Source: Escherichia phage FL18. Taken from it: 64,000 bases of DNA. Location of the stretch: the sequence record PP400780, one strand, 5' to 3'. How positions within the stretch are numbered: position 1 is the first letter of the stretch; every line of letters starts with the position of its first letter. The notes beneath the pieces are model-generated. The model saw only the letters and a program-made list of their open reading frames with translations, was not told the DNA's origin and ran no database searches. Both the position numbers and the translations under genes were made by a program. Shown here piece by piece: positions 5,755-55,525 of the stretch.

Positions 5755-5811
5755 TGTACAACCAAGGATGGTTGGAGTATAATGAATCTATCTTAACGAG
5801 AGGAAAATATT

Positions 5812-8004: not shown

Positions 8005-8202
8005 TTGATATGGAAATGGGAAGAGATTATTATGCAAGTTAAATTATTGTACCGTTTATTAAAAAATGGCAAGCATGATTGGTATTTGCTTATTAAAACC
8101 GATCAGAATTTTTTCTCCGGACACCCATTTACAGTTCGTCCTACTAAACGTCAGCTTCGCAAAGCTAAACGTTCTCATCGTAACTTTTATAACGTTTACT
8201 AA
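8005..8202 (+). CDS. hypothetical small basic protein
   Basis: C-terminal motif VRPTKRQLRKAKRSH resembles C-terminus of ORF 35942..36154 (VRPTKRQIRQEKRKF). Confidence 0.35.
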   Translation: MIWKWEEIIMQVKLLYRLLKNGKHDWYLLIKTDQNFFSGHPFTVRPTKRQLRKAKRSHRNFYNVY

Positions 8203-8204
8203 AT

Positions 8205-8241
8205 TATAAATACCCTTATCTATTTAAGGTAAGGGTTTATC
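8205..8241 (+). promoter_or_regulatory. late promoter TATAAATA plus RBS-sequestering hairpin upstream of gene 49
   Basis: TATAAATA at 8205-8212; inverted repeat ACCCTTA (8212-8218) / TAAGGGT (8230-8236) includes SD AAGGG; ATG at 8242. Confidence 0.5.
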
Positions 8242-8715
8242 ATGTTATTATCAGGCGCAAAATATAAAGAAGAAAAACAAAAATTTTATGATGCACAGAA
8301 TGGTAAGTGTCCTATTTGCCACCGTGAATTAGACCCTGATGTTCAAGGTAACCATCTTGACCACGACCACGAATTAAACGGGCCAAAAGCCGGTAGAGTT
8401 CGTGGATTACTCTGTAATCTGTGCAACGCAGCAGAAGGTCAAATGAAGCATAAGTTCAACCGTTCCGGTCTTAAAGGACGTGGTGTCGACTACCTCGAAT
8501 GGCTTGAAGCTCTTCTTGTTTATTTGAAACAAGATTATTCTGATAATAATATCCATCCTAATTTTGTTCCAGACAAAACTAAAGAGTTCTCAAGACTAGG
8601 TAAAGAGGAAATGATGGCTGAGATGCTTCAAAGAGGATTTGAATATAATGAATCTGACACCAAAACACAGTTAATAACTTCATTTAAGAAGCAGCTTAGA
8701 AAGAGTTTAAAATGA
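8242..8715 (+). CDS. 49: endonuclease VII (Holliday junction resolvase)
   Basis: 157 aa, near-identical to recalled T4 gp49 (MLL.GK.YKEEKQKFYDAQNGKC ... HLDHDHELNGPKAG). Confidence 0.9.
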   Translation: MLLSGAKYKEEKQKFYDAQNGKCPICHRELDPDVQGNHLDHDHELNGPKAGRVRGLLCNLCNAAEGQMKHKFNRSGLKGRGVDYLEWLEALLVYLKQDYSDNNIHPNFVPDKTKEFSRLGKEEMMAEMLQRGFEYNESDTKTQLITSFKKQLRKSLK

Positions 8716-9380
8716 ATGTAGTATATAAACTATCATTTATTAGTAGAATTAATGCTAAAACCCCGCCATATTATTATATTGGAAGTAAAACCAATTGCAC
8801 TTTTGACGGAACGAATATTATTGATAAAAATGGTAAATTTTATTATTCGTCTTCGTCATCTTCCGAATTTCAAAAAGCTTTGTTGAAAGAAACACCGAAA
8901 GTTGAAATATTATATTTTCAATTAGTCGGAGATGAACAAATAACTAGCATTGAAGCTGAATTTCAAAAGAATATAGAAAAAGATATATGGAATAAAGAGT
9001 ATTTTAATTTAGCATATGCTAATGGTCAATTTACAACGTACGGTGTTTCTCCTTCTAAAGAAACTAGAGAAAAGCAATCAATAACCATGATTAAAAGAAA
9101 TCGTAATAAAGGTAAAAATCATGGATTTTATGGAAAGCATCATACTAATTTAGCCAGAAAGAAAATATCAGAAGCTTCTAAAAAATACTGGAAAGAAAAT
9201 CCACATCATGGATTTTCGCACACAAAGGAAGCTAAAATTAAAATTGGAATTTCATCTTCTATCAGGCATAAAGGAAGTGGAAATCCGATGTACGGCGTAA
9301 AACCTTGGAAAACTCCTAGCGTTGTTCCATGGAATTTAGGTAAAATGAAAGAAATGGTAAAACGAGTAAAACATGCATAG
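8712..9380 (+). CDS. Seg-like homing endonuclease (GIY-YIG-like N-terminus, NUMOD-like repeats)
   Basis: VYKLSF ... YYYIGSK motif; repeated K/R-rich helix motifs; GNPMYG; paralogous to ORF 18918..19451. Confidence 0.55.
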   Translation: MNVVYKLSFISRINAKTPPYYYIGSKTNCTFDGTNIIDKNGKFYYSSSSSSEFQKALLKETPKVEILYFQLVGDEQITSIEAEFQKNIEKDIWNKEYFNLAYANGQFTTYGVSPSKETREKQSITMIKRNRNKGKNHGFYGKHHTNLARKKISEASKKYWKENPHHGFSHTKEAKIKIGISSSIRHKGSGNPMYGVKPWKTPSVVPWNLGKMKEMVKRVKHA

Positions 9381-10203
9381 GTATTATATAATTTATAAAA
9401 TAACAAATATAATTAATTCAAAGGAATATATCGGTGCGCATAGCACCGATAACATAAATGATGGTTATATGGGATCAGGAACATTGATTCGTGCCGCTTT
9501 ATTAAAATATGGTAGAAAAAATTTTAATAAAGAAATTTTACATGTTTTTGATAATGAAAAACAAATGTATGATAAAGAAGCTGAACTCGTAACCGAAGAG
9601 TATTGTCTAAAAGAAAATACATATAATATTAAACCTGGTGGAAAAGGTGGAACTGCCTATGAACAGACACTTGAACATCGCCGCAAAAATAGTTTAGCAA
9701 ATAAAGGTAAAAAGAGAACAGAAGAAACTAAAATAGCTATTTCACGTGCTTTAAAGAAATATAAACGTACGCCAGAGCATCAAGCAAATTTAAATAAAGC
9801 CGTAAGCATAGCTATGAAGCGAAAAGATGTTAGAAGTAAATTAGCTGGAGAGCGGTCTGAGAAAGATAAATTACCTATATCAAACGGTGTTAAAAAATAT
9901 TACAATTCTTTGAGTGAAGAAGAACGCGAACTTCATCGCAAGCGAATTATTGAAGGTAAAAAGAATTCTCCCATGTCATTGGAATCTAGACAAAAGCTTT
10001 CAAAAGCTTTAAAAGGACTTCAAGTTGGTTCAAAAAATCCAATGTATGGAAAAATTTCTCCAACTAGCAAAACCGTTTCAGTTGACGGTATTAAATATGA
10101 TTCAATTAAAAAGTGCTCAAATGCCATAAAAGTTTCTAGACATCTTATACTAAAACGCTGTAATTCTACTGATGAAGCTTGGAAAAATTGGATATTATTA
10201 TGA
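9373..10203 (+). CDS. GIY-YIG homing endonuclease (Seg-like)
   Basis: YYIIYKITNIINSKEYIGAHST (GIY ... YIG), downstream N/E residues, NUMOD3-like repeats (TEETKIAISRALK; SLESRQKLSKALKG; NPMYGK). Confidence 0.75.
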   Translation: MHRYYIIYKITNIINSKEYIGAHSTDNINDGYMGSGTLIRAALLKYGRKNFNKEILHVFDNEKQMYDKEAELVTEEYCLKENTYNIKPGGKGGTAYEQTLEHRRKNSLANKGKKRTEETKIAISRALKKYKRTPEHQANLNKAVSIAMKRKDVRSKLAGERSEKDKLPISNGVKKYYNSLSEEERELHRKRIIEGKKNSPMSLESRQKLSKALKGLQVGSKNPMYGKISPTSKTVSVDGIKYDSIKKCSNAIKVSRHLILKRCNSTDEAWKNWILL

Positions 10204-10670
10204 ATTATGACAGAATATACCCGTGTTGCTTTGTGAATGGCCCTGGATGCAGGGTCGTTCTTTTCGTTACAGGTTGTTTGCATAAATGCGAAGGGTGTTA
10301 TAATAAATCAACATGGAATGCTAGAAATGGTGTTCCATTCACTGGTGAAACACTAGAACAATTAATTGAATGTTTGAATAATGATTATATAGAAGGATTG
10401 ACTATAACCGGAGGTGACCCTCTTTATCCTGATAACAGAGACGTGATTCACTCTGTGGTTCAAACTATTAAAAATCTTTATCCCAATAAAAGCATTTGGT
10501 TGTGGACAGGATATAAGTTTGAAGATATTAAACAACTAGAAATGCTTAAATATGTTGATGTTATTATTGATGGGAAGTATGAGAAAAATCTTCCGACTAA
10601 AAAGCTGTGGCGAGGATCAGATAATCAGCGACTTTGGTCAAATACCGATGTGGTGTGGAAACATGATTAA
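10200..10670 (+). CDS. nrdG: anaerobic ribonucleotide reductase activating protein (radical SAM)
   Basis: 156 aa from ATG at 10200 (MNYDRIYPCCFVNGPGCRVVLFVTGCLHKCEGCYN); matches recalled T4 NrdG. Confidence 0.85.
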   Translation: MNYDRIYPCCFVNGPGCRVVLFVTGCLHKCEGCYNKSTWNARNGVPFTGETLEQLIECLNNDYIEGLTITGGDPLYPDNRDVIHSVVQTIKNLYPNKSIWLWTGYKFEDIKQLEMLKYVDVIIDGKYEKNLPTKKLWRGSDNQRLWSNTDVVWKHD

Positions 10671-10785
10671 ATTGAATTATATTATGGATACTATAAATGA
10701 TATGATTTTTCATTTTGGTCCAGAATTTTATTCGCAGTATAGTTTAGTGCTTATCAATGCTTGGTTAATCAATTAAGGGTAAAAT

Positions 10786-25308: not shown

Positions 25309-25944
25309 ATGAAAACTACTCCTATTACTATCGCTATTGACGCAATCATAAAACAAGCTTCTTCTTTGGCCGCTATGGCCAAAGTAATTAGTCAAAACCC
25401 TGCTCGTTATAATGCTATTCTAGAAACTCTTCGACGCCCTGGACTTAGTAATTATGAAAGCCGGGTAATTATTACAGGTGTTGGTAAGAATGCTAATATC
25501 GCAACTAAAGCTTCCGAGACATTTGCTTCACTAGGTATTCCTAGCATGTATTTGAACACTGGGCATTATTCTCACGGTGATGCAGGATTCATTGCGCCTA
25601 ATGATGTGTTGATTCATATTAGTCGTTCTGGTAAGACTGAAGAAATGATAGGTGTTGCTAAACATCTTCGTATGATTCGTCCTCAGGTTAAACAGATTCT
25701 GTTACATTGTAACCCAGACATTCCACAAGAATACGAAGCTCTTTTTGATTATACGTTCTGTACTGGCATCGCGGTAGAGGTTGATGAGAATTCTCTGGCT
25801 CCGACTATGTCCACTACATTGTTGTTAGCGCTTATCGATACGTTTGCTATCAACCTTTCGTCTGAACGTGGATTTACCTCTAATGATTTCCTTAAGTTCC
25901 ATCCAGGCGGTGCACTAGGTGCCATGTTACGAGGCGAACAATGA
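25309..25944 (+). CDS. SIS-domain sugar-phosphate isomerase (arabinose-5-phosphate isomerase KdsD/GutQ-like, no CBS domains)
   Basis: ITGVGKNANIATK ... HGDAGFIAPNDVLIHISRSGKTEE ... APTMSTTLLLALID ... FHPGGALG align with recalled KdsD SIS-domain motifs. Confidence 0.7.
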   Translation: MKTTPITIAIDAIIKQASSLAAMAKVISQNPARYNAILETLRRPGLSNYESRVIITGVGKNANIATKASETFASLGIPSMYLNTGHYSHGDAGFIAPNDVLIHISRSGKTEEMIGVAKHLRMIRPQVKQILLHCNPDIPQEYEALFDYTFCTGIAVEVDENSLAPTMSTTLLLALIDTFAINLSSERGFTSNDFLKFHPGGALGAMLRGEQ

Positions 25945-26084
25945 AAGCAATAACAATAGGACTTTTACTATTGATGCTTGTCATGACTATCTACTGGAGC
26001 TTAACGGCTCCGGTAATGATTCCAACACTTGTAATTGGATGGATTATGATTGGACTACAAGCAAAGTATGAATGCTTTAACTAG
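25941..26084 (+). CDS. small membrane protein (47 aa)
   Basis: manual translation MKAITIGLLLLMLVMTIYWSLTAPVMIPTLVIGWIMIGLQAKYECFN; ATGA overlap with SIS gene stop; below ORF-track cutoff. Confidence 0.4.
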   Translation: MKAITIGLLLLMLVMTIYWSLTAPVMIPTLVIGWIMIGLQAKYECFN

Positions 26085-26097
26085 AATAGTGTACAAT
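26070..26097 (+). promoter_or_regulatory. putative MotA-dependent middle promoter (MotA box AATGCTTTA, -10 TACAAT 12 nt downstream)
   Basis: aatgctttaactagaatagtgtacaat upstream of nucleotidyltransferase-kinase gene. Confidence 0.4.
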
Positions 26098-26125
26098 ACT
26101 CCTACTTACCAATGAGGACTTTAAC

Positions 26126-27811
26126 ATGAAAAAAGCTGTTATTCTTGGTGCTGGACTGGCAACTCGTTTGTATCCAATAACGCATCATATTCCTAAGGTG
26201 CTTGTTAACTATAAACAAGATACTATTCTGAGCAATTTGTATACAATTTATTCTGACCTTGGCGCAGATGAAATTATTGTAGTAGTTCATTCAAAATTTG
26301 CTGAAACTGTTCGAGCTTATTGTGAACAAGAAGGGTTCAATGTGACTATTCGTACAGTTGATGAAGCGTATGGTTCTGCTTATGCTCTTGCTAAATTACA
26401 CAAAGATTTAGACGGCCATAATGTAATTGTTAACTGGTGTGATATTATTCCTGATTTTGGTTCATGGTCTTGGAATGTTAACGCAATCTATGTTAAGGGT
26501 GACGAATGTCGATATAATTTCGACGGTGAAAATATCACTAACGTAGGTTCAACAGGTGGTAATGTTGTAGGAATTTATCAGTTCAAAGACTGGGAATTCT
26601 ATATGGGTTCTACTGATGAGGAAATTCATGAATACTGCAAAGGACGTGATTTCGTAGAATTCCTTTACGGCAGCGCATTCAATAAATCAGAGCTTATGAA
26701 TCTAATTGATTTAGGTGATATGCCTAAACTTGAAAAAGCTCATGAAGTTCGTGAACTTAATCGTAGTTTTAATGCAGTTGAAATTGGTGAAGAAACTGTA
26801 ACTAAATTCGCATTAACCGAACAGGGTCGAGCTCTTCAGAAAGATGAGATTTCGTGGTATCTTAAAGTGAAATCAGATTCAGTTCCTCAGTTAGTTTCTG
26901 TTAATGAAAATAACTTTGAAATGGAACGCATTAAAGGTAAGCCTGCATTTGAATATATTAAATCCAAATCAAGTCTTGCTCGTCCACAAATTGTTGATGC
27001 AATTTTAGATGCACTGAAATTCAGCACAGACACTTATTTTGTAAGTCCTGAAACTGTTCGTCGTGATTTCACTAAAGAATTCTATACGAAAGTTATTGAT
27101 CGTTGTGAAAGCATTCAACCATTGATTGATTCATTTGGTAAAATCACACATGTGAACTACACTAAGATTGGACGTCTGAAGCCAATGCTGAAACAAGCTT
27201 TAGAACACCTCATTCGTTATCATAACCGTTCTCAGGGACAGTACTCTGTTATTCACGGTGACCCGAACTTCAGTAATACTATGATTACTGATAATGGCGA
27301 AGTCAAGTTTATCGACCCTCGTGGATATTTTGGTGAAACCAAGATTTACGGGCCAAAATTGTACGATGAAGCTAAAGTGCTTTATGCTGTTTCAGGTTAT
27401 GATGAATTCAATGCTAATCCGACCTGGGGGCAGTTTACTATTGATGAAACAACTTGTAATGTGACTATTAACATCAATCCATTAGTTTACAAATATAGAA
27501 AGATGAGTTCGTTTAACGAGTATCATCATTTGGCAGTGGCAATTATCTGGATTGCATTAGGCGGTTATTTCAAGAATAATCCACTTAAAGCGGTAGCCGC
27601 ATATTATAAAGGTATGGAACTTCTGACTAAGCAATTACGTAACATGGGCCGTGTACTTCAGGACGGCTCTATTAGTTATGACGTAGCAGAACCTGTAACG
27701 GCTACTCTGATTACAAAAAATCCTGGTAAATGGGTACTAACTGATAAAGAAACTGGTGTTTCCTATCGTCCAATCGGTGGCGATATCACTCATCAATGGG
27801 AACGAATCTAA
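26126..27811 (+). CDS. bifunctional sugar-1-phosphate nucleotidyltransferase / kinase-like fusion protein
   Basis: N-terminus MKKAVILGAGLATRLYPITHHIPKVLV (sugar nucleotidyltransferase G-rich loop); C-terminal region has protein-kinase-like HGDPNFSNTMI (catalytic loop) and FIDPRGYFG (DFG-like) as in APH/choline-kinase-type small-molecule kinases. Confidence 0.65.
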   Translation: MKKAVILGAGLATRLYPITHHIPKVLVNYKQDTILSNLYTIYSDLGADEIIVVVHSKFAETVRAYCEQEGFNVTIRTVDEAYGSAYALAKLHKDLDGHNVIVNWCDIIPDFGSWSWNVNAIYVKGDECRYNFDGENITNVGSTGGNVVGIYQFKDWEFYMGSTDEEIHEYCKGRDFVEFLYGSAFNKSELMNLIDLGDMPKLEKAHEVRELNRSFNAVEIGEETVTKFALTEQGRALQKDEISWYLKVKSDSVPQLVSVNENNFEMERIKGKPAFEYIKSKSSLARPQIVDAILDALKFSTDTYFVSPETVRRDFTKEFYTKVIDRCESIQPLIDSFGKITHVNYTKIGRLKPMLKQALEHLIRYHNRSQGQYSVIHGDPNFSNTMITDNGEVKFIDPRGYFGETKIYGPKLYDEAKVLYAVSGYDEFNANPTWGQFTIDETTCNVTININPLVYKYRKMSSFNEYHHLAVAIIWIALGGYFKNNPLKAVAAYYKGMELLTKQLRNMGRVLQDGSISYDVAEPVTATLITKNPGKWVLTDKETGVSYRPIGGDITHQWERI

Positions 27812-28197
27812 TGCACCGTGTAGAAAACATGCTTAATCTTTGTTTTGATGTCGATGATTGTATAACAGAGTGGAATAACAATCGTGATTACGTGAACTTC
27901 AAACCTGACGTCGAAATGGTGTCTGCCATTAATGCCCTGTATGATGCAGGGCATACCATAACGCTTTACACTGCTCGCGGTATGAAGTCAGTAGGTCCTG
28001 GACGTATAGCAATTGACATTCTCCCAAGTCTGATTCAGAACTTGGAAAACATTGGTTTGAAGTACCATAATTTGCTAACACATAAACCAGTATATGATTG
28101 GATTATCGACGACAAAGCTATGCGTCCTGACGAATTCAAAGCTCTTATGAATAAAGGCGAATTCGAAACATTTAAATCGTATAAACCGAATCTATAA
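27811..28197 (+). CDS. HAD-superfamily phosphatase-like protein (start uncertain: 27796, 27811 or 27829)
   Basis: N-terminal LCFDVDDCIT (motif I-like DxD), TITLYTARG (motif II-like), WIIDDK (motif IV-like). Confidence 0.5.
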   Translation: MHRVENMLNLCFDVDDCITEWNNNRDYVNFKPDVEMVSAINALYDAGHTITLYTARGMKSVGPGRIAIDILPSLIQNLENIGLKYHNLLTHKPVYDWIIDDKAMRPDEFKALMNKGEFETFKSYKPNL

Positions 28198-28253
28198 TAA
28201 TTTAAGTAAGACCTGCAAAAACCATCGCGTCAATTAACGTGAGATGCAAAAAA

Positions 28254-29414
28254 ATGAATACTTTTAAAATTGGAACGAATTTTGATTTAGCTCTTCTTGA
28301 TAAAATCGTAGAGCTCAATAAAACTTATCCTAATAGCTTGATAAACGAAGTATACGGCTCTACAAGAGAAATGGCTTTTGTAGCAGCCAGACCTGATTTT
28401 AGGCTTCCTGACGTTGACAAAAAGATGTTAGAAGATTACGTTAAACGTTGTAACGAATTAGGTATTTGCTTTAACTATACACTCAACACGATAAATCCTG
28501 GTTCAAAAAGAGAACTAGTTGAGTGGAAGAAGAAAGCTATTCAGGATTATGTTCAGTATCTTTGGTCAATAGGTGTATGGCGTATTACTATCGCTAACCC
28601 TGTTGTTATGGAAATTGTTCGTGAAGTCAATAAAGACATTGAGATTGAAGTTTCAACAATTCTACATGTCGATGCTGTAACTCAAATCAAATACTTGCAT
28701 GACCAGTATAATATCAAAAAGGTCTGCTGTGGAATTCATAAGAACCGTTCAGTTTCTTTCCTGAAGCGTGCAGCAGAGTTTTGCAATAAGAACAATATAA
28801 TATTTGAAGTTCTTGTAAATGAGTTCTGTTCTAATGCTGGTAAAGGGTATACAACACATTGTAGCTATCGTGACTCTTGCTATATTTTCCATAGTACTGA
28901 TGTTACAGCTGATGATGCTAAATCCTTAAACGGATATCCTATGCAGCACTGTATTAAAGCTCGTGATACAGACCCATTTAACTGGTTGAGAACTCGTTTT
29001 GTTCGTCCTCAAGATTTGAAACTTTATAATGATATTGGTATCACTCAATTCAAAGTTTCAGGACGTACAGGTAGCACAGACTACATTTTGAAAGTTCTTG
29101 AAGCATACGCTTCTGAAAAGTTTGAAGGTAATTTGTTAGAACTGTGGAAGCCTTTAGAGACTATTTTCACTCTTGAAAACGAAACTGAGTTTTCACATAC
29201 AGTAAATATTGAAACCTCTTTGTTAGATGGCTTTTTAGAAAAAAGGTGGTTCAGACATCCAGATTTCGATTGTGCTAATGAAATCTGCGGGACGACGTGT
29301 ACATATTGTGAAAGATATTATAAACGTCAATTATCTAAAAACGGGTTAGCAGAAAACTCTATATCTATTATTGATATAACTAACTCTGATGACGCTTTGA
29401 GGTACCCGGAATGA
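28254..29414 (+). CDS. Cys-rich protein of unknown function (candidate metallo/Fe-S enzyme)
   Basis: 386 aa from ATG at 28254; Cys clusters CCGIH, FCSNAGKGYTTHCSYRDSC and C-terminal CANEICGTTCTYC (contains CX3CX2C). Confidence 0.5.
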   Translation: MNTFKIGTNFDLALLDKIVELNKTYPNSLINEVYGSTREMAFVAARPDFRLPDVDKKMLEDYVKRCNELGICFNYTLNTINPGSKRELVEWKKKAIQDYVQYLWSIGVWRITIANPVVMEIVREVNKDIEIEVSTILHVDAVTQIKYLHDQYNIKKVCCGIHKNRSVSFLKRAAEFCNKNNIIFEVLVNEFCSNAGKGYTTHCSYRDSCYIFHSTDVTADDAKSLNGYPMQHCIKARDTDPFNWLRTRFVRPQDLKLYNDIGITQFKVSGRTGSTDYILKVLEAYASEKFEGNLLELWKPLETIFTLENETEFSHTVNIETSLLDGFLEKRWFRHPDFDCANEICGTTCTYCERYYKRQLSKNGLAENSISIIDITNSDDALRYPE

Positions 29415-29650
29415 TTTCTAGAAAAACTTTTAATCACCAACTTAATGAAGAGATTTTGACTACGAAACTGAACACTAACGAACAAATTCTTAAAAAGGCC
29501 CTTATGGGCCTGTTTGAAACCAAAGCGGCTAAAGTGATTAAAGGACCTGTTCAATTAGAATATTACGCTGATACATTTCTTCATAGTGTTCTTGGAAGTA
29601 TCGATGCTGAAGCTTTACGTTATATCAACATTGCCAAGAAATTCAAATAA
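29411..29650 (+). CDS. hypothetical protein (79 aa)
   Basis: ATGA-overlapping ORF at end of sugar cassette. Confidence 0.45.
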   Translation: MISRKTFNHQLNEEILTTKLNTNEQILKKALMGLFETKAAKVIKGPVQLEYYADTFLHSVLGSIDAEALRYINIAKKFK

Positions 29651-29692
29651 GCTTTACGAATTGAGTATATAATAAATTGTATTGAGGTAAAC

Positions 29693-30409
29693 ATGGGGAA
29701 ACATAACACAATGAAATATATCAAAGCCGCAGATTTTCAAACCGCATTTAAAGCAGTCAATCGTGAAATTTTAGAAAACCCGGAATTCGTAACTGATTCT
29801 CGTATTGGACGTTGTAATGAAATTGGGTCTATGACAGTAGTTGTTGACACTCCATCATCATTCAAAATGACTGACCCACGTATTAACCGCATCTCTTATG
29901 AATATGCCGAAGACTTCTGGAAGTTTATGATTTCTGGTGGTACCAACGCAGAAGAAGCGTTTAAGGCATATCCTAATGTCGCTAAATTTATTTCTAAACC
30001 AAAATCAGATGTTTTGCCGGCGAACTTCAATACTTTCTATGGTCCTCGCATTGCGGCCCAATTACCAGCTCTTCTAAAAGAACTTAAAGAGAAGCCTAAC
30101 TCTCGAAGAGTTGTGTTCCAAATTCTAGAAAGTTCTGATCAGGCTTTGCTTGATTCGGATGAAACGCTTGAATATCCATGTACTGACTCAGTGACTTATT
30201 ATATTCGTGATGGTAAGCTTTATACCCACTGTCATATGCGTTCTCAGAACTGTGCTGTTGTTATGCAGTTGGATTTTTATCTCCAAGGAAAATTACTTCA
30301 TTATATCGCTAACGAATGCGGTGTAGAAGTTGGTGATTATACTCATACCATGGTAAGTGCCCATGTGTTTGAACGTGATTTTGATTATGTTAAAGGATTC
30401 CTTGACTAA
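29693..30409 (+). CDS. 42: deoxynucleotide hydroxymethylase, thymidylate-synthase family (T4 gp42 dCMP hydroxymethylase-like)
   Basis: YPCTDSVTYYIRDGKLYTHCHMRSQNCAVVMQLDFY matches the TS/dCH catalytic core (PC nucleophile, MRS motif); synteny downstream of 43. Confidence 0.75.
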   Translation: MGKHNTMKYIKAADFQTAFKAVNREILENPEFVTDSRIGRCNEIGSMTVVVDTPSSFKMTDPRINRISYEYAEDFWKFMISGGTNAEEAFKAYPNVAKFISKPKSDVLPANFNTFYGPRIAAQLPALLKELKEKPNSRRVVFQILESSDQALLDSDETLEYPCTDSVTYYIRDGKLYTHCHMRSQNCAVVMQLDFYLQGKLLHYIANECGVEVGDYTHTMVSAHVFERDFDYVKGFLD

Positions 30410-31308
30410 TGGCTATTTTCCGCGTACCAATCTTGAGTATGCGGTCTTATGAAACTGGACAGTATGCTATCCTTAAGGATGGCAACTTCCAACTTCATTT
30501 GCACCGTGCTAATCCGGGTGATGTGATTACATATCCACGTAATGCATCTGATATTAAAGAATGCGAACGTCTTTTCCCAGAATTTAAGTTTGTTCCATTA
30601 TGGTATAAAGATAACGCTTATAACACTCGTAAATATTTCTGGTCTGAAAATGAATTTGTGGTTGATTCATTAATTGCTTATTATGATTGCGATTTTCTAA
30701 TCACAGATATAACTGGATATGACGGCGCTTTTGATGTAGAATTCAATTTCAATATCACTGCAGACCCTAATAAACCACGTTTTTATATTGACGAATTCTT
30801 AAAAACCGACATGTTGTCGGTTAATCGTTCAATCCAAACAACTGTGTTGAATGAACGTCAAAAAGAAGTGCTGGTTAACGCAGGTGCAGATGGTAATAAG
30901 ATTATCGTAACGCAGAAAGTTATACGTCCTTCCATCATGCAGCGTCTTGTAGGTGATTTGGCTCCTATTTATCTAGATGGTATTTTTCATCCATTTCGAA
31001 TTAGTGACCCGTGCTATCGTTTTGAACAAGTGGTTGAATGTGCAATTCAATTAGGTCAACCGCTTTATATAACCGATCCAAATAATAGCTTTGACAGAAA
31101 TAAGTATCCTGAAGAAGCGTTGATTCGAATTTTTAAACCAACTAAAACTGAGTACTATCAAATTCTTAAAGGACGTCCGAAGATTCAATATTTCGAAAAT
31201 CCTGAAGAGGTATTTCATCCAGGTCTTGGTGAGTTCATCTACTTTAATGCTTTAATTTCTTCACCGTATAATATACCTAAATATGAAGATGTCGTAATCG
31301 AGGAATAA
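30409..31308 (+). CDS. hypothetical protein occupying the T4 beta-glucosyltransferase locus (candidate DNA sugar transferase)
   Basis: 299 aa ORF between gene 42 and uvsX; no similarity to recalled T4 beta-GT. Confidence 0.45.
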   Translation: MAIFRVPILSMRSYETGQYAILKDGNFQLHLHRANPGDVITYPRNASDIKECERLFPEFKFVPLWYKDNAYNTRKYFWSENEFVVDSLIAYYDCDFLITDITGYDGAFDVEFNFNITADPNKPRFYIDEFLKTDMLSVNRSIQTTVLNERQKEVLVNAGADGNKIIVTQKVIRPSIMQRLVGDLAPIYLDGIFHPFRISDPCYRFEQVVECAIQLGQPLYITDPNNSFDRNKYPEEALIRIFKPTKTEYYQILKGRPKIQYFENPEEVFHPGLGEFIYFNALISSPYNIPKYEDVVIEE

Positions 31309-31309
31309 A

Positions 31310-31858
31310 ATGGCTAAAATTATTTTAGTAGATGGCCCGGATAATGCTGGTAAAACAACTTTCATTAATGACATAATGGAAATTAGTGAAAGATATGTAA
31401 AAATTGATTTCCCTAAACGAACAGTTGATGGACGTTTCGATGTTAAGTCTCGAAATGAAGTTGGCTGTTTTGAAACGATGTTGAATTATTTAGACCCTAC
31501 TAAGATTTATCTGTTAGACCGTGGATATATTAGTAACTGGGTTTACGGACGTATTCGACAAGATGCGGACTCGGTTCTTGACGTTTATGAACAGGATTAT
31601 ATTCGTCTTTGCCAAAACCATGATGTGTTCACAATTATTTTAACACGTAACGAAATGACTGAAAGTTTTGAAGACGACCTTATTACTTTGTCTTCATTCG
31701 GTTTTAATACAGTCATTTCACATTTTGAAGAGTTTGCAATTCATAACAAAATCCAAACGTATCAATTACTTAATCATGATGGTGCTAACAAAGTTATAGG
31801 ATTTAATGCAAGCGAACGTAATGGTTTGATTACAGAAATCATCAAATGGGCTCGTTAA
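31310..31858 (+). CDS. P-loop nucleoside/nucleotide kinase-like protein
   Basis: Walker A GPDNAGKTT near N-terminus; LLDRGYISNWVYG resembles the DR(Y) motif of TMK/dNK-type kinases. Confidence 0.5.
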   Translation: MAKIILVDGPDNAGKTTFINDIMEISERYVKIDFPKRTVDGRFDVKSRNEVGCFETMLNYLDPTKIYLLDRGYISNWVYGRIRQDADSVLDVYEQDYIRLCQNHDVFTIILTRNEMTESFEDDLITLSSFGFNTVISHFEEFAIHNKIQTYQLLNHDGANKVIGFNASERNGLITEIIKWAR

Positions 31859-49163: not shown

Positions 49164-49573
49164 TGGCTAATAAATTCCGCGTTAACTCATGGTACCAATT
49201 TATAGATAAACGTGCCCAAGAAGAGTTTATTAAAGACCACACTGATAATGGGATTTATTCACGACGTCTTGGCATGGAACCATTTAAAGTATTAGATGTT
49301 GACCATCTTGGACGTCCTACTAAAATTGTGACATCTACTGGCACGGTTGGATATGCATCAGGCGGTGATATCCTTGATGAAAACTTTATCTGGCTTTCCA
49401 CGAATGAAGCAGAGTTCTTTGACGAAGTTGAAAATCCGTATCAAGCGTCCGAAGAGCAAGATTCTGGTGAACTTGATGAATTGTCTGAATTTCCGGCGAT
49501 GACGATTACTATCGAAAATAACGACCAGGCATGGTCTTTGTATCAAATGTTGAAAGCACATTTTAAGGAATAA
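49163..49573 (+). CDS. hypothetical acidic protein (136 aa)
   Basis: ATG at 49163 (TAATG overlap) within ORF-track entry 49145..49573. Confidence 0.5.
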
Positions 49574-49575
49574 TA

Positions 49576-49755
49576 ATGCCGTTATACGACTATAAATGCC
49601 AATCTGAAGATTGTGGACATGAATATGAAAAAATTAAAAGGATTTCTGAACGAGAAAACGATGTTTGCCCTGAATGTCATCGTCTGTCTACTCGTCGGGT
49701 TTCTGCTCCTAAACATGTGAACGGTGGTTTTTACGACTTACTTAAGAAGGGTTAA
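49576..49755 (+). CDS. zinc-ribbon protein (FmdB-like, 59 aa)
   Basis: manual translation MPLYDYKCQSEDCGHEYEKIKRISERENDVCPECHR...; two CxxC pairs; below ORF-track cutoff. Confidence 0.5.
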   Translation: MPLYDYKCQSEDCGHEYEKIKRISERENDVCPECHRLSTRRVSAPKHVNGGFYDLLKKG

Positions 49756-49757
49756 TT

Positions 49758-50183
49758 ATGGCTTTTAAAGGTTTTGAAGTTGGTAAGAAATATCGTATTA
49801 TCAAAGGACAGGAAGATAATTTCTTGAGAATTCTTAATACGACTGGTAAACGTCTTAATACTAATCTGCATACTACTTTATTGTCCAAAGATTTTATTGT
49901 GGAAGAGATGATTGGTTACGGTGTTTCGGTTATTGCTGTAGAAGCCGTAGGCGATTATGGCCGAACTATTCATAGTATGCAAGGTGATATTCTGCTTTAT
50001 GGTGCAGAATTTAAATTCTTTGAAGAAGTTCCGGAACCAGATACAGCTGTCGATTTCAAAAAAGGCTCTATAGAATTTGTTGATGGTTCGGTGATCGTAT
50101 CAGGCGATGTGGTCATTACAGTTAAAAGTGAACAAGGGCGTTTGGCTGCAATCGATACACTTCAGAAAATTAAATTTAAATAA
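49758..50183 (+). CDS. hypothetical protein (141 aa)
   Basis: ORF-track entry; followed by terminator. Confidence 0.5.
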   Translation: MAFKGFEVGKKYRIIKGQEDNFLRILNTTGKRLNTNLHTTLLSKDFIVEEMIGYGVSVIAVEAVGDYGRTIHSMQGDILLYGAEFKFFEEVPEPDTAVDFKKGSIEFVDGSVIVSGDVVITVKSEQGRLAAIDTLQKIKFK

Positions 50184-50200
50184 GGGCTTCGGCCCTTTTT
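50182..50200 (+). terminator. rho-independent terminator (AAGGGC-TTCG-GCCCTT-TTT), same motif as at 12576
   Basis: identical stem-loop sequence to the 12576 terminator. Confidence 0.6.
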
Positions 50201-50246
50201 GCTTTAGATTTCGGATGATAGAATACCTTCATAACGAGGAGACAAC

Positions 50247-52064
50247 ATGATTAAAAATGAAATTAAGGTATTGACAGATGTAGAACATATTAAGAAACGT
50301 AGTGGTATGTATATTGGTTCTTCGGCTAAAGAAGCACATGAGCGTTTTTTGTTTGGTAAATATCAACAAGTTGAATATGTTCCTGGTCTGGTTAAATTAA
50401 TCGATGAGATTATTGACAACTCGGTTGATGAAGCTATTCGTACATCATTTAAGTTTGCAAATAAAATTGATGTGCAAATTAAAAATAATCAAGTTTCGGT
50501 GGAAGATAACGGACGTGGTATTCCTCAAGGTTTAGTTACTGACCAAACAGGTGAACAAATTCCTGGTCCTGTAGCGGCCTGGACTATTCCAAAGGCTGGT
50601 GGTAACTTTGGTGATGATTCTGAACGCAAGACTGGTGGTATGAACGGCGTCGGGAGTAGTTTAACTAATATCTTCTCTACGTTGTTTACAGGCATCACGT
50701 CAGATGGCGAAAACGAAATCACTGTTAACTGTTCAAACGGAATGGAAAACAAATCATGGTCTTCTAAGAAATCTAAAGGTAAAGGCACTAAAGTAATCTT
50801 CACTCCTGATTTCTCTTCATTTGAAGAACATAATTTATCTCAAATTTATTTAGATATTACTTTAGACCGACTTCAAACATTGGCAGTCGTTTATCCTGAT
50901 ATCAAGTTCACATTTAATGGTAAAAAGGTTGATGGTAATTTTAAACGATTTGCTAAACAATTTGGTGAAGATAACATCATTCAAGAAAATGATAAAGTCT
51001 CTATAGCATTCACAACATCACCAGATGGCTTCCGTCATTTAACTTATGTGAATAACATCCATACTAAAAATGGTGGCCATCATGTTGAATGCGTAATGGA
51101 TGATATCTGCGAACATCTTTTGCCGGGTATTAAAAAGAAATATAAGGGTATTGAAGTCACTAAAGCTCGTGTTAAAGAATGCCTCACAATGTTGATGTTT
51201 ATTAGAGACATGAGCAACATGCGTTTTGATTCTCAGACTAAAGAACGTTTAACGTCAACGTATGGTGATATTCGTAATCATATCCAATTAGATGCTAAGA
51301 AAATTGCTCAGGCACTTCTTAAAAACGAAGCCTTGATTATGCCTATTGTTGAAGCAGCATTAGCTCGTAAATTGGCAGCAGAAAAGGCTGCAGAAACTAA
51401 AGCAGCTAAAAAGGCAACTAAAGCTAAGGTTCATAAGCATATTAAAGCTAACCAATGTGGTAAAGATGCAGATACGACATTGTTTTTAACAGAAGGTGAT
51501 TCGGCAATTGGTTATCTCATTGATGTTCGTGACCGTGAACTACACGGCGGATTCCCATTACGTGGTAAGGTGATGAATAGCTGGGGTATGTCATATGCTG
51601 ATATGATGAAGAACAAAGAGCTCTTTGATATCTGTGCTATCACAGGTCTTATTCTTGGTGAAAAGGCAGAGAATACGAACTATCGTAATATTGCAATTAT
51701 GACCGATGCCGATCACGACGGTCTTGGAAGTATTTATCCTGCTTTGCTTGCTTTCTTTAGTAATTGGCCCGAATTGTTTGAACAAGGACGTATTCGCTTT
51801 GTTAAAACACCTGTAATTATTGCACAAATTGGCAAAACTCAAAAATGGTTTTATACTGTAGCTGAGTATGAAGAAGTTAAAGATACACTGCCTAAGCATA
51901 GTATTCGATACATCAAGGGATTAGGCTCCCTTGAAAAGTCAGAGTATCGTGAAATGATTCAGAACCCTGTGTACGACGTAGTTAAACTTCCTGAAAATTG
52001 GAAAGAACTCTTTGAAATGTTGTTGGGTGATGATTCAGAACTTCGTAAAGAATGGATGTCCTAA
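50247..52064 (+). CDS. 39: DNA topoisomerase II large subunit (fused gene 39 + gene 60 equivalent; GyrB-like ATPase + Toprim)
   Basis: 605 aa single ORF; GHKL motifs (EIIDNSVDE, EDNGRGIP) and C-terminal MTDADHDGLGSIYPALLAFFSNWPELFEQGRIRF matching recalled T4 gp60; no interruption. Confidence 0.9.
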   Translation: MIKNEIKVLTDVEHIKKRSGMYIGSSAKEAHERFLFGKYQQVEYVPGLVKLIDEIIDNSVDEAIRTSFKFANKIDVQIKNNQVSVEDNGRGIPQGLVTDQTGEQIPGPVAAWTIPKAGGNFGDDSERKTGGMNGVGSSLTNIFSTLFTGITSDGENEITVNCSNGMENKSWSSKKSKGKGTKVIFTPDFSSFEEHNLSQIYLDITLDRLQTLAVVYPDIKFTFNGKKVDGNFKRFAKQFGEDNIIQENDKVSIAFTTSPDGFRHLTYVNNIHTKNGGHHVECVMDDICEHLLPGIKKKYKGIEVTKARVKECLTMLMFIRDMSNMRFDSQTKERLTSTYGDIRNHIQLDAKKIAQALLKNEALIMPIVEAALARKLAAEKAAETKAAKKATKAKVHKHIKANQCGKDADTTLFLTEGDSAIGYLIDVRDRELHGGFPLRGKVMNSWGMSYADMMKNKELFDICAITGLILGEKAENTNYRNIAIMTDADHDGLGSIYPALLAFFSNWPELFEQGRIRFVKTPVIIAQIGKTQKWFYTVAEYEEVKDTLPKHSIRYIKGLGSLEKSEYREMIQNPVYDVVKLPENWKELFEMLLGDDSELRKEWMS

Positions 52065-52090
52065 GCTCCTTCGGGAGCTTCATTTTAATT
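52063..52090 (+). terminator. stem-loop AAGCTCC-TTCG-GGAGCTT followed by T-rich tract
   Basis: inverted repeat overlapping gene 39 stop. Confidence 0.5.
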
Positions 52091-52106
52091 TTAATAAGGC
52101 TTAATT

Positions 52107-53207
52107 ATGAAAGTTATGTTTATCCCATCTCGCGCAGTCCCATTTAACCCAGAACGTGTACAAGGTGGTCTTGAAGCAGTACATTTAAATGTGTTGAAAT
52201 ATCTTGTGTCCATCGGTGCTGATATTGATTATATCGGCTTTGATAATGACACGTTTGGTGACTGGAAGGTTAATCATCATCCTGTTGGTCATCTGACTAA
52301 ATTCAGTCTAGGTATGAGTTATACTATGGCTCGTAAGATTGTTGAACTAGCCGGCATTAATGAGTACGATTTCGTTGTTACAATGGAACCGACCAAACTA
52401 ACCGTTCAGGCAATTAAAGACGCAGGTCTCTCTAAAGTTCATAAGAATTTTATGGCAACACCATTTGAACCAGTATCTCGTGGCATTGTTCAAATTTGGG
52501 ACCAGACTATTCAAATTCATAAGAACGGTGGTAAGAGTTATGCTCCTACTAAAGCCTTCCGTGAATTTGAACGCAAATATTGTTATATGACTTCAGGTCT
52601 GACTGACAAAATTGATTATGATTATTGGCGAGCAAATCCGTTGTTTGAAGCCGAAGATTATCCGGTTATTTGTTTGAATGATAAACCTGAAGTTCTTCCG
52701 GCGACGGATCTGATTATTAGTGCACAACGTTATGACACTAAAATGCGTCGTACTGATGTTGCTCTTGAAGCGATTAAAGCACTAGGCGAAAATGGTGCAG
52801 GATACTGTCCAAGCAAATGGGCGCCACCGGCTAAATATCCTGTTATTATTGATGCTCCACACAGTGAAATTATGGAACGTCTTAAAACAGCTAAAGCACT
52901 TATTAATACGTGTCCTGACACAGGTACGGTAGAGAATAGTTCTATTGAAGCCATCTCTAAAGGTGTCCCTGTAATCCAGTTAGTTTTTAAGGATTATCCT
53001 CATGCGACATTTGAATACGACCCAGATACTGTGCGTGTAGAAATTGATTCCTCTACTCCTAAGAAAGAAGTAGTTGCGCTTTACACAAAAGCTGTATTAG
53101 AATTCACTGACACATACGAAGCTCGAGTTAAACGTGCTGAAGCTGTATGGAAGAAGTATAACCGAGATGCAGTTGTTGCGATGTGGGATAAAATCTTCAC
53201 AGCGTAA
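52107..53207 (+). CDS. putative glycosyltransferase (GT-B fold, GT4-like)
   Basis: N-terminus MKVMFIPSRAVPFNPERVQGGLEAVHLNVLKYL and C-terminal ENSSIEAISKGVPVIQ resemble GT4 N-terminal and EX7E-region motifs; judged by eye. Confidence 0.45.
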   Translation: MKVMFIPSRAVPFNPERVQGGLEAVHLNVLKYLVSIGADIDYIGFDNDTFGDWKVNHHPVGHLTKFSLGMSYTMARKIVELAGINEYDFVVTMEPTKLTVQAIKDAGLSKVHKNFMATPFEPVSRGIVQIWDQTIQIHKNGGKSYAPTKAFREFERKYCYMTSGLTDKIDYDYWRANPLFEAEDYPVICLNDKPEVLPATDLIISAQRYDTKMRRTDVALEAIKALGENGAGYCPSKWAPPAKYPVIIDAPHSEIMERLKTAKALINTCPDTGTVENSSIEAISKGVPVIQLVFKDYPHATFEYDPDTVRVEIDSSTPKKEVVALYTKAVLEFTDTYEARVKRAEAVWKKYNRDAVVAMWDKIFTA

Positions 53208-53299
53208 ATCCTGAATAGCCTGAGGCACTATTACACATAAGATGATAGATTATATGGTCTTTAGTAATAGTGCCCTAGGAATCTACTGAAGAGAATATT

Positions 53300-53500
53300 A
53301 TGAGAACATATAACGTGGACTTGGAACTTTTTGATAAAGCAGTGCTCCGGGAATTCCGGCTTATCCAAAGATTTTTTGATATCGAGTCAGCAGAGTCCTT
53401 TAAAGAACGCTTTAAAGAAATTCGATATAAAATACAAACCGATACAGCTACTAAAGAAGAACTTCTCGAAGTGGCAGAAATTTTTAAACGTAACTTGTGA
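53300..53500 (+). CDS. hypothetical protein (66 aa)
   Basis: ORF-track entry. Confidence 0.45.
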   Translation: MRTYNVDLELFDKAVLREFRLIQRFFDIESAESFKERFKEIRYKIQTDTATKEELLEVAEIFKRNL

Positions 53501-53512
53501 TGAGAGAAAAAT

Positions 53513-54325
53513 ATGATTATTGAAACGGCTAAAGAAACGATTATTGGTTCTGGTGGTAAAAGCACAGCATTTACTATTCAAGGCAATAGCAAAGTTTATA
53601 AGATTTTGTCTAATGACCTTTATACAAACAAAGAATTGGCTTGTGTACGTGAATTAATCACAAACTGTATCGATGGACAAATTCTTAATGGTTGCACTGA
53701 TAAGTTTATTGTTCAGGCTCCAGGTCGTTTAGACCCACGTTTTGTAGTTCGAGACTTTGGTCCTGGTATGAGTGATTTCACCATTCGAGGTAATGACGAA
53801 GAGCCAGGAATCTATAACTCATATTTTGCTTCAACTAAAACATCGAGTAACGATTTCATTGGTGGATTCGGACTCGGCTCTAAAGCTCCACTAGCATATA
53901 CCGATACGTTTAACATTACTTCTTATCATAATGGTGAAGTTCGTGGTTATGTAATTTATCAAGATGACAGTGGTCCACAGATTAAGCCAACCTTCGTAGA
54001 TAAGATGGGTCCTGATGACCGGACCGGCGTTGAAGTAGTTGTGCCTGTTAACCCAGAAGATTTTGAAAAGTTCGCATCCGAAATTGCATATGTTATGCGT
54101 CCTCTAGGTGATATTGCAGAAGTTCGCGGTGTTAAAGATATCAAATACTTTCCTGAATTCGATGATGTTTATTTAGCCAAGGAAGCTCCATGGGGTGAAC
54201 GTGGTAATATCATGGCTGTTTATGGTGGTATTGTATATCCAATCGGAAGTGTTATTAAAGAACAAACCTGGATGATGACGCGATGCACACTACGGCTGGT
54301 TAGAATGCAACGAAGTTGTTATTGA
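53513..54325 (+). CDS. rIIA: rIIA-like protein, N-terminal GHKL ATPase domain (apparently truncated/frameshifted)
   Basis: GHKL N-box ELITNCID, G1 box DFGPGM, G2 box GGFGLGSK; only 270 aa before stop versus about 725 aa in T4 rIIA. Confidence 0.6.
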
Positions 54326-54467
54326 AATCCCACCGGTAGATGCAGAATATCTTGAAGAAGGAGACCGCATTTATTTTGGCGAACTACACATCAGAGGTAT
54401 CTATGGTAAAGACGAACTTGGGGCTGTTGAGGCTGAAGAGTCTTCCGACATTTATCCTGTCGAATGA
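54279..54467 (+). other. open frame-0 segment plausibly continuing rIIA after a +1 frame change
   Basis: translation [40 protein letters not shown]... resembles recalled T4 rIIA region ...NWLSIRNEVNYIKFP... Confidence 0.35.
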
Positions 54468-54960
54468 GTTTTTGACTAGCGAAATGAAGGTTAAGATCGC
54501 TGATACTGCTCGGTACTCGTTGAAACAAGATCCAGACCAAAACAAAGAAGATGTAGTTCGACGTTGTAAGGTTGCGGTCTTTGCAGAGTATGTAGTAGCA
54601 AATTGGCTAGACGGATATGTTAATAAAGGTATTGAAGACGTAGAAGACCCGTACACGTATGCATGGGACGTGTTAGCCCATCCCAAGTATTGTGGAATTC
54701 GTGTAGAAGTCAAGACACACCAGATAGATTCTAAATGGATTTCGGTTACCACAGGATACAGTGGTGATTATCCGGGTGGTAATGGAATCAATATAGGGCC
54801 CTTCCTTAATCATCGAGTCGCAGATTGCATTATTATATTAGATGTCAAAGAAACCTCACCTGACGTCTTCTCTTATTCTATAAAGTTCGTGGGAGACCAT
54901 GAAGACCTAAAGAAAATCGTCCGTAAGAGCAACTACAACGGGTGGTATCTTCATCTTTAA
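54340..54960 (+). CDS. hypothetical protein in a third frame (possible rIIA C-terminal remnant or separate gene; weak PD-(D/E)xK-like signature)
   Basis: AWDVLAHPKYCGIRVEVKT contains D ... E-x-K pattern; first ATG downstream of the frame-0 stop is at 54481. Confidence 0.4.
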   Translation: MQNILKKETAFILANYTSEVSMVKTNLGLLRLKSLPTFILSNEFLTSEMKVKIADTARYSLKQDPDQNKEDVVRRCKVAVFAEYVVANWLDGYVNKGIEDVEDPYTYAWDVLAHPKYCGIRVEVKTHQIDSKWISVTTGYSGDYPGGNGINIGPFLNHRVADCIIILDVKETSPDVFSYSIKFVGDHEDLKKIVRKSNYNGWYLHL

Positions 54961-54970
54961 TTTCATAAAA

Positions 54971-55010
54971 ATGTTTACAACTAAGTAGGACTATGATATA
55001 GTAGTCCTAT
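54971..55010 (+). promoter_or_regulatory. T4-type early promoter with -10 in stem-loop (AGGACTA TGATATAG TAGTCCT)
   Basis: atgtttacaactaagtaggactatgatatagtagtcctatc. Confidence 0.5.
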
Positions 55011-55028
55011 CTAAAAGAGGATAACATC

Positions 55029-55292
55029 ATGAAATTTAAATTTTTCTACGCAAAACATAAAGTGACCGGTGAGTTTGTTTCAATGTACAACACTGTAGAT
55101 GACGAAGGGATGATTTATACTCATTTAAGTCTATCTCATTGGGACTCAGACGTGCCTTATATGTCATCTGAAGCCGAAATAACTCGTTTAGTTAATGGAC
55201 ATATGAACGACCATTTTGGTGTTATTCTTTCTAAAGACCTTAAAGAGGTTATCAACAAAGGATATATGGAACTCGCGGAAGTTGAGATATGA
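55029..55292 (+). CDS. hypothetical protein (87 aa)
   Basis: ORF-track entry with GAGGA SD. Confidence 0.5.
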   Translation: MKFKFFYAKHKVTGEFVSMYNTVDDEGMIYTHLSLSHWDSDVPYMSSEAEITRLVNGHMNDHFGVILSKDLKEVINKGYMELAEVEI

Positions 55293-55482
55293 GCTCTAAA
55301 ATGTGGATAGGAATATGGTTGCTTAGTATCCCAATGATTTGTATAATATTTTCAATTGTGTTGAGGTACTTATGAAAAATGCACTTCTTATTGTACTAAG
55401 AACAATTTGTGATGCGTGGTTTTACATTGCATGTTCGTTCACTGGAACATGGTTGGCTTTAACATATTTTAATGTAATTTAA

Positions 55483-55525
55483 TTGTTTACATCAAGGTAG
55501 GATTATGGTATAGTAGTCCTATCAA
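55483..55525 (+). promoter_or_regulatory. T4-type early promoter with -10 in stem-loop (same cassette family as 36895 and 54971)
   Basis: ttgtttacatcaaggtaggattatggtatagtagtcctatc. Confidence 0.5.

Follow-up and report, generated by a model that had tools for sequence, protein, structure and literature searches.

A candidate second DNA arabinosyltransferase encoded between the topoisomerase and rIIA.1 genes of Escherichia phage FL18

A stretch of 64,000 nucleotides (nt) from Escherichia phage FL18 (sequence record PP400780; hereafter the window) encodes, on the + strand at positions 52107-53207, an ATG-initiated open reading frame (ORF) of 366 amino acids (aa), which was found exactly where an earlier reading of the sequence alone (hereafter the original prediction) had placed it. 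The best explanation of the evidence assembled here is that this ORF encodes a soluble GT-B glycosyltransferase, the Mosigvirus orthologue of RB69 gp3 (ORF003c), from a small branch of the GT4 lineage that is restricted to phages. We estimate a probability of roughly three in four that the enzyme is dependent on uridine diphosphate (UDP)-arabinofuranose (UDP-Araf) and extends alpha-arabinofuranosyl-5-hydroxycytosine in phage DNA to a beta-(1->3)-linked disaccharide. The gene, its fold, the crystal structure of a 98%-identical orthologue, and the second-sugar hypothesis itself have already been published, and the gene has been flagged since 2018.

In the mechanism that we favor, phage DNA would be made with 5-hydroxycytosine (5hoC), and a first glycosyltransferase, GT1 (encoded at 30409-31308), would add an alpha-D-arabinofuranose to O5 of the base. 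The 366-aa enzyme would then bind UDP-Araf in its C-terminal domain, via the G20-G21 loop, R208/R214, and E281, and would attach a second arabinofuranose at O3 of the first to yield beta-D-Araf-(1->3)-alpha-D-Araf-5-hydroxy-dC. The bulkier disaccharide would shield the DNA from host nucleases and from other DNA-targeting defences. We infer the second transfer by this enzyme, its acceptor specificity, and the roles of its individual residues from the lines of evidence that follow.

The 366-aa ORF is a real gene under purifying selection and not a chance ORF, because it matches PHROG 8302 (labeled ‘unknown function’) over residues 1-366 (E = 3.6e-222), has orthologues at 90% or greater nucleotide identity in 155 phage records, all Mosigvirus, exhibits ratios of nonsynonymous to synonymous substitution rates (dN/dS) of 0.03-0.10 against three orthologues, and is 41-43% identical to homologues from Acinetobacter phages. 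Its base composition is ordinary for its region. All close DNA matches of the window were to Mosigvirus (RB69-like Straboviridae), and the 25 kb around the gene are 94-96% identical to the best public records. The window therefore represents a new isolate of a well-known genus.

The FL18 protein is 98.9% identical to RB69 ORF003c/gp3 (RB69p003, NP_861693.1), from which it differs by a handful of substitutions; the two have the same 366-aa length and occupy the same slot between the gene for the topoisomerase large subunit and rIIA.1/rIIA. The FL18 window differs from RB69 in a downstream rII deletion that is unrelated to the enzyme. Full-length orthology and conserved synteny thus accompany each other, and the genome also encodes a 5-hydroxydeoxycytidine monophosphate synthase, genes for UDP-Araf synthesis, and a first transferase, as assigned from the roles of their RB69 counterparts. 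Arabinose was identified in RB69 DNA by Thomas et al. (2018; PMC6024577), who used custom hidden Markov models (HMMs) and HHpred to propose ORF003c as an arabinosyltransferase and singled out Gly-20, Arg-207, and Glu-281. More recently, the cytosines of RB69 were shown to be replaced by mono- and di-arabinosylated 5-hydroxycytosine, with the disaccharide resolved by nuclear magnetic resonance (NMR) as beta-D-Araf-(1->3)-alpha-D-Araf on O5 of the base (Lee et al., 2026; PMC13326640). Based on structural prediction, the same authors designated RB69p003 as ‘beta-arabinosyltransferase 2’ and gp46:47 as arabinosyltransferase 1. Mono- and di-arabinosylated 5hoC are present in the DNA of both RB69 and NicPhage, and the second arabinosyltransferase was proposed to be gp3 or the ‘transferase between rIIA and topoisomerase’ (PMC13326640, PMC13390438). 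Bas46 and Bas47 are cited as doubly arabinosylated. Deletion of ‘the arabinosyltransferase Aat’ from Bas46 is cited as sensitising that phage to a plasmid-encoded defence system (PMC13216743). According to the RB69 chemistry, the sugar is D-arabinofuranose, the donor is UDP-Araf, and the modified base is 5-hydroxycytosine, which replaces the 5-hydroxymethylcytosine (hmC) substrate envisaged in the original prediction (PMC13326640).

A profile search of sequences in the PDB recovered a near-identical solved structure (E = 2.3e-168), namely the ‘phage HY126 glycosyltransferase’ in apo form (9IQZ) and with UDP (9IR0), released on 2025-07-16. The crystallised protein is 98% identical to that of FL18 and its gene occupies the same slot, from the topoisomerase gene to rIIA.1, in the HY126 genome. 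An AlphaFold2 model built from a 16-member family alignment (predicted local distance difference test score [pLDDT] of 90.9; predicted template modeling [pTM] score of 0.87) was superimposed by Foldseek on 9IQZ/9IR0 with template modeling (TM) scores of 0.95-0.97; a model from the single sequence was discarded as unusable (pLDDT of 37). The next structural neighbours were GT4/GT5 enzymes and the T4 DNA alpha-glucosyltransferase; the nearest from outside phages were sucrose-phosphate synthase, BshA, PimA, WaaB, and WaaG, and, beyond the family itself, the closest viral models include those of glycosyltransferases from Rhizobium phage RL2RES and Sinorhizobium phage phiM9. The predicted structure comprises two Rossmann-like beta/alpha/beta domains with an inter-domain cleft. 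Judging from this model and its match to 9IQZ/9IR0, the GT-B fold is present beyond reasonable doubt, and an outcome that would have spoken against the original prediction, the lack of a glycosyltransferase fold in structure-based searches, did not occur. By analogy with the UDP complex of the HY126 enzyme, binding of a UDP-sugar donor by the FL18 protein is supported indirectly.

The N-terminus of the protein, which had been described as GT4-like, indeed comprises a strand (residues 2-6), an invariant G20-G21 loop (nt 52164-52169), and a helix (residues 21-35), and N-domains of the GT4 type align to it. The acceptor-binding role of this domain is inferred from GT-B enzymes in general. Across 14 full-length family members, the invariant residues include G20-G21, D88, E94, R125, R208 (codon at 52728-52730), R214 (52746-52748), E276 (52932-52934), E281 (52947-52949), and H299. 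The spacing of R208-x5-R214 resembles that of the R-x5-K phosphate-binding pair of GT4 enzymes such as PimA and WaaG.

The HY126 GenBank translation (5247-6344 of the compared stretch) is 97% identical to the FL18 protein, with 10 aa differences, and has GVLGIQ at residues 286-291. At these positions, GVPVIQ is present in the crystallised HY126 protein, the FL18 protein, and all family members, with P288 and V289 being invariant in the family. The reading in the HY126 genome record is probably a sequencing error or a variant.

Standard domain libraries overlook this glycosyltransferase, yet it was picked out from the sequence in the original prediction. Pfam scans of the 366-aa protein returned nothing, even at E <= 10, and neither did NCBIfam scans; the protein thus does not match the Pfam models Glycos_transf_1 and Glyco_transf_4 at their curated thresholds. 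A weak match to PF20706 (GT4-conflict) was detected in 3 of 16 family members, the best of which (E = 0.0028) misses the default cut-off of 0.001. Word-indexed homologue searches recovered only about 15 clusters, and when the family profile was run exhaustively with HMMER against 1.84 billion representative proteins, 24 matches were returned at E <= 1e-3, eight of them at E <= 1e-30, which indicates that the family is really tiny. The weaker full-length HMMER matches (E = 1e-13 to 1e-4) were bona fide GT4 proteins with both Glyco_transf_4 and Glycos_transf_1, and hhalign aligned the family profile to a profile of these GT4-positive matches with a probability of 99.8% (E = 3.7e-30; 357 columns). 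Alignments to single E. coli GT4 sequences had yielded probabilities of 27% (WaaG) and 19% (WaaB) and were replaced by that profile. As judged by profile comparison, remote homology to GT4 is clear despite the silence of the domain libraries.

The C-terminal segment ENSSIEAISKGVPVIQ had been noted by eye to resemble the EX7E region of retaining GT-B enzymes, and this resemblance held in part. E281 aligns with the second Glu of EX7E in the comparison to the GT4 profile, and also in the weaker alignment to WaaG, and the EA..G.PV consensus that follows it is retained. In place of the first Glu, by contrast, Mosigvirus has D271 and the Acinetobacter phage homologues have N; two residues inserted after this position lengthen the spacing accordingly, such that two Glu eight positions apart are not found in the C-terminal domain. 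The invariant E276 adjoins this insertion; the other invariant positions within ENSSIEAISKGVPVIQ are S279, E281, A282, I283, G286, P288, V289, and Q291. Compared to the retaining GT-B enzymes of CAZy family GT4 (PimA, 2GEJ; BshA, 3MBO/6N1X; sucrose-phosphate synthase, 6KIH; WaaG), the FL18 protein is only 10-15% identical, and it differs in that its acceptor is presumably a sugar on DNA, its donor a pentofuranose, and its proposed product linkage beta. Identity to the T4 DNA alpha-glucosyltransferase (1Y6F/1XV5) is 9%. The T4 enzyme and the second-sugar (gentiobiosyl-forming) glucosyltransferase of T2/T6 employ UDP-glucose with hmC or glucosyl-hmC, whereas the FL18 pathway employs UDP-Araf with 5hoC; the T2/T6 second-sugar enzyme can be considered a functional analogue.

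The taxonomic distribution of the 366-aa family is narrower than that of GT1. Homologues of GT1 were detected in 350 phage records, comprising phages of Escherichia (Mosigvirus, Dhakavirus), Klebsiella, Serratia, Yersinia, Proteus, Edwardsiella, Pseudomonas, and Acinetobacter. The 366-aa protein had homologues in no more than 211 records, of which 155 were Mosigvirus, 55 were Acinetobacter phages with two copies each, and one was a Tegunavirus. All of the genera named among the latter matches (Escherichia, Shigella, Acinetobacter) were also among the GT1 matches, and no Shewanella or Serratia phage record was matched, even though the collection includes Thanatos-2 and LC53.

In Acinetobacter phage Maestro, two paralogues are encoded within the arabinosylation operon, in the order ThyA homologue, GT1, kinase, paralogue 1, and paralogue 2. 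These are 43% and 41% identical to the FL18 protein over their full length and 56% identical to each other. Their equivalents in phage DLP3, gp76 and gp77 (gp077 and gp078 in Maestro), are members of the same family that transfer Araf to arabinosylated phage DNA in vitro; acting together with UDP-Araf as the donor, they attach a third Araf to the DNA of RB69 (PMC13326640). DLP3 DNA is tri-arabinosylated and the phage carries both paralogues, whereas the DNA of Shewanella phage Thanatos is reported to be mono-arabinosylated and that phage to encode a single arabinosyltransferase that is syntenic with GT1 (PMC13326640). Among the characterised phages, the number of glycosyltransferases tracks the number of sugars: one in mono-arabinosylated Thanatos, two in di-arabinosylated RB69, NicPhage, Bas46, and Bas47, and three in tri-arabinosylated DLP3. 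Collectively, the narrower distribution, the operon context, and the sugar counts fit an accessory, chain-extending transferase; a primary, base-modifying transferase would not predict this pattern. The suggestion in the original prediction that the gene encodes a second candidate DNA sugar transferase, possibly one that adds a second sugar, is in effect the published model for RB69 gp3, and it agrees with both the distribution and the Acinetobacter operon context.

Three other explanations were weighed against a chain-extending role. The one that survives best is the proposal originally made in 2018 for RB69 ORF003c, in which the enzyme would be the primary DNA arabinosyltransferase that places the first arabinose onto the modified cytosine. 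We regard this as improbable, given that GT1 is present in many more records than the 366-aa family, that none of the 211 records with the latter are from Serratia, Klebsiella, Yersinia, or Shewanella phages, and that mono-arabinosylated Thanatos manages with its one GT1-syntenic transferase. In addition, the Acinetobacter homologues act on DNA that is already arabinosylated and have no activity on 5hoC DNA (PMC13326640).

The enzyme might instead share its base with GT1 and act at different sites or in different sequence contexts, as the T4 alpha- and beta-glucosyltransferases do when they split hmC sites (PMC13216743). This is very unlikely, since NMR has revealed that the two sugars form a genuine disaccharide, joined by a beta-(1->3) bond that some enzyme must make (PMC13326640), and only two glycosyltransferase candidates have been identified in Mosigvirus (PMC13326640, PMC13390438); the argument from the unequal distributions applies equally here. 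We likewise give very little credence to a target other than DNA, such as a host envelope glycan or lipopolysaccharide (LPS) intermediate, a small molecule, or a phage protein. In favor of such a target, sugars, lipids, thiols, and LPS are the substrates of the nearest structural neighbours from outside phages, and about 20 kb separate the Mosigvirus gene from the arabinosylation cluster. Against it, the arabinosylation operon of Acinetobacter phages includes the paralogues, DNA is modified in vitro by the DLP3 pair (PMC13326640), and hardly any member of the family occurs outside phages with the 5hoC-arabinose pathway.

Several considerations nevertheless weigh against the assignment of the FL18 enzyme as the transferase of the second arabinose. 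The correlation between gene count and sugar count is based on few chemically characterised phages. Orthology to one or the other Acinetobacter paralogue could not be assigned, the two being 56% alike and each only 41-43% identical to the Mosigvirus protein; with that protein about equally far from both, orthology to a ‘second-sugar enzyme’ is not derivable from sequence. The arrangements also differ, with two tandem paralogues in the operon that are both needed for the third sugar in Acinetobacter phages and a single, off-cluster copy and modification up to a disaccharide in Mosigvirus. The individual DLP3 transferases are inactive alone and the pair is required (PMC13326640); therefore, that the single-copy Mosigvirus enzyme would act independently of a partner protein is an assumption. 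The papers covered here, which do not include He et al. (2026, Nat Chem Biol) and Mahler et al. (2025, Cell Host Microbe), described neither a direct assay nor a knockout of the Mosigvirus enzyme. Lastly, the closest structural relatives of the enzyme are retaining, yet the linkage proposed for its product is beta, in contrast to the alpha linkage of the first sugar.

This last point bears on the stereochemistry of the pathway. If both sugars are drawn from one UDP-Araf pool, as is presumably the case, then an alpha-linked first sugar and a beta-linked second sugar require that one transferase inverts and the other retains. It is conceivable, albeit doubtful, that the GT4-derived 366-aa enzyme is the inverting one. 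Features in line with an inverting enzyme are the loss of the first EX7E Glu, the new and invariant E276, and the invariant acidic residues D88 and E94 of the N-domain. The GT4 lineage is, to our knowledge, otherwise retaining. If the enzyme does invert, this would represent a mechanistic switch within a GT4 scaffold that is coupled to recognition not of a base but of a pentofuranose on the DNA.

The features of the locus and of the arabinosylation cluster are compiled in Table 1. The order of genes (topoisomerase large subunit, glycosyltransferase, rIIA.1, and rIIA) matches that of the annotated relatives 348Ecol098PP and HY126. The original prediction had correctly placed the gene between gene 39 and an rIIA-like gene; the slot that it attributed to gene 60 is, however, part of the single topoisomerase ORF. 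This topoisomerase II large subunit is encoded by one 605-aa ORF, with neither a separate gene 60 nor the 50-nt bypass arrangement of the T4 type.

Table 1. Positions of the glycosyltransferase gene, its parts and neighbours, and the arabinosylation genes in the FL18 window.
Feature	Position	Strand	Basis or remark
Glycosyltransferase gene, 366 aa	52107..53207	+	Orthologue of RB69 ORF003c/gp3 and phage HY126 glycosyltransferase (PDB 9IQZ/9IR0)
N-terminal Rossmann-like domain, residues ~1-190, presumed acceptor-binding half	52107..52676 (approximate)	+	Model secondary structure, invariant columns, GT4 N-domain alignment
C-terminal Rossmann-like domain, predicted to bind nucleotide sugar, residues ~191-336	52677..53114 (approximate)	+	Model, invariant columns, hhalign
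ENSSIEAISKGVPVIQ, residues 276-291, in degenerate EX7E region D/N271-x9-E281	52932..52979	+	hhalign against GT4 profile and WaaG; invariant columns
AAGG, Shine-Dalgarno-like, 7 nt before ATG	52096..52099	+	Read from sequence
Putative terminator-like or RNA-stabilising hairpin, 7-bp stem, TTCG loop, G+C-rich	52063..52080	+	Pattern scan and sequence
Topoisomerase II large subunit, 605 aa	50247..52064		Upstream neighbour of glycosyltransferase gene
rIIA.1-like ORF, 66 aa	53300..53500		Downstream of glycosyltransferase gene
rIIA	from 53513		After rIIA.1-like ORF
5-hydroxycytosine/UDP-arabinofuranose gene cluster	25309..31858	+	ORFs, Pfam matches, RB69 roles from PMC13326640
GT1, putative DNA arabinosyltransferase, 299 aa, RB69 gp46:47 orthologue	30409..31308	+	ORF; role from PMC13326640

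The TTCG-loop hairpin directly follows the stop codon of the topoisomerase gene and precedes the glycosyltransferase gene; a TTCG-loop hairpin is also located after the ORF that ends at 50183. Terminator-like, G+C-rich hairpins are enriched at 49500-55500, with 12 found versus 3.3 +/- 1.8 expected from shuffled sequences. In phage AV116, a homing endonuclease gene (868-1665 of the compared stretch) is inserted between the topoisomerase large-subunit and glycosyltransferase genes, where the FL18 window has only a 42-nt spacer with the hairpin.

The arabinosylation cluster, which is complete in the window, comprises genes for an arabinose-5-phosphate isomerase-like protein with a SIS domain, a bifunctional NTP-transferase/kinase, a HAD-like ORF, a U32-family protein, a thymidylate-synthase homologue, GT1, and a kinase-like ORF; Pfam matches in the cluster were to SIS, NTP_transferase, Peptidase_U32, and Thymidylat_synt. 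The orthologue of GT1 has been proposed to attach the first, alpha-linked arabinose to 5hoC (PMC13326640). The possibility that the 366-aa protein is a paralogue of GT1 was rejected, as no sequence similarity between the two was detected.

The Peptidase_U32-family gene within the cluster (RB69 ORF050c) is located at 28239-29414 (with 29411-29650; compared with 4992-6502 of another stretch) and is highly conserved, its Escherichia and Shewanella phage Thanatos-2 copies being 82% identical at the aa level. Homologues were identified in 221 records, the hosts of which, where listed, are Enterobacterales or Shewanella. No Acinetobacter phage was listed, even though 57 carry GT1, and the Maestro cluster lacks the gene. 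GT1 occurs without the U32-family gene in about 40 Escherichia records (176 versus 136 by organism name), and any pattern related to host physiology is therefore not strict. In Serratia phage LC53, the U32-family gene is followed by a true type II chorismate mutase (Pfam CM_2, E = 1.7e-11); the 79-aa ORF at the syntenic position of the FL18 window has no chorismate mutase similarity. Proteins of the U32 family include the O2-independent hydroxylases RlhA, TrhP (which is prephenate-dependent), and UbiU/V. Because these relatives are O2-independent hydroxylases, the U32-family gene may, by analogy, provide an oxygen-independent route to 5-hydroxycytosine.

Downstream of the glycosyltransferase gene, the window carries a deletion of about 2.5 kb relative to phage 348Ecol098PP that takes out rIIB entirely, together with the C-terminal two-thirds of rIIA and the initial ~100 nt of a small ORF before denB. 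The junction (54280-54288; counterpart 8183-10718 in the compared relative's stretch) is marked by a 9-nt overlap (microhomology), and rIIA is cut to an ORF of 270 aa (53513-54325). Of 159 matching records, AV116 (94.6% identical in this region) is the only one with contiguous sequence across the junction, and its annotation shows the same rIIA remnant of 270 aa. A 206-aa ORF at 54340-54960 was considered as a novel nuclease and rejected; it is denB (endonuclease IV), whose reading frame stays open upstream of the gene, next to the rII deletion; its annotated start (MKVKIAD...) corresponds to about 54484.

The value of this analysis lies in confirmation, as the biology of the gene has already been published. 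Arabinosylated 5-hydroxycytosine protects Mosigvirus DNA from many restriction enzymes and from other DNA-targeting defences, and the number of sugars appears to alter which defences still work. The identity of the gene that adds the second sugar matters when these common coliphages are engineered, sequenced, or used in therapy.

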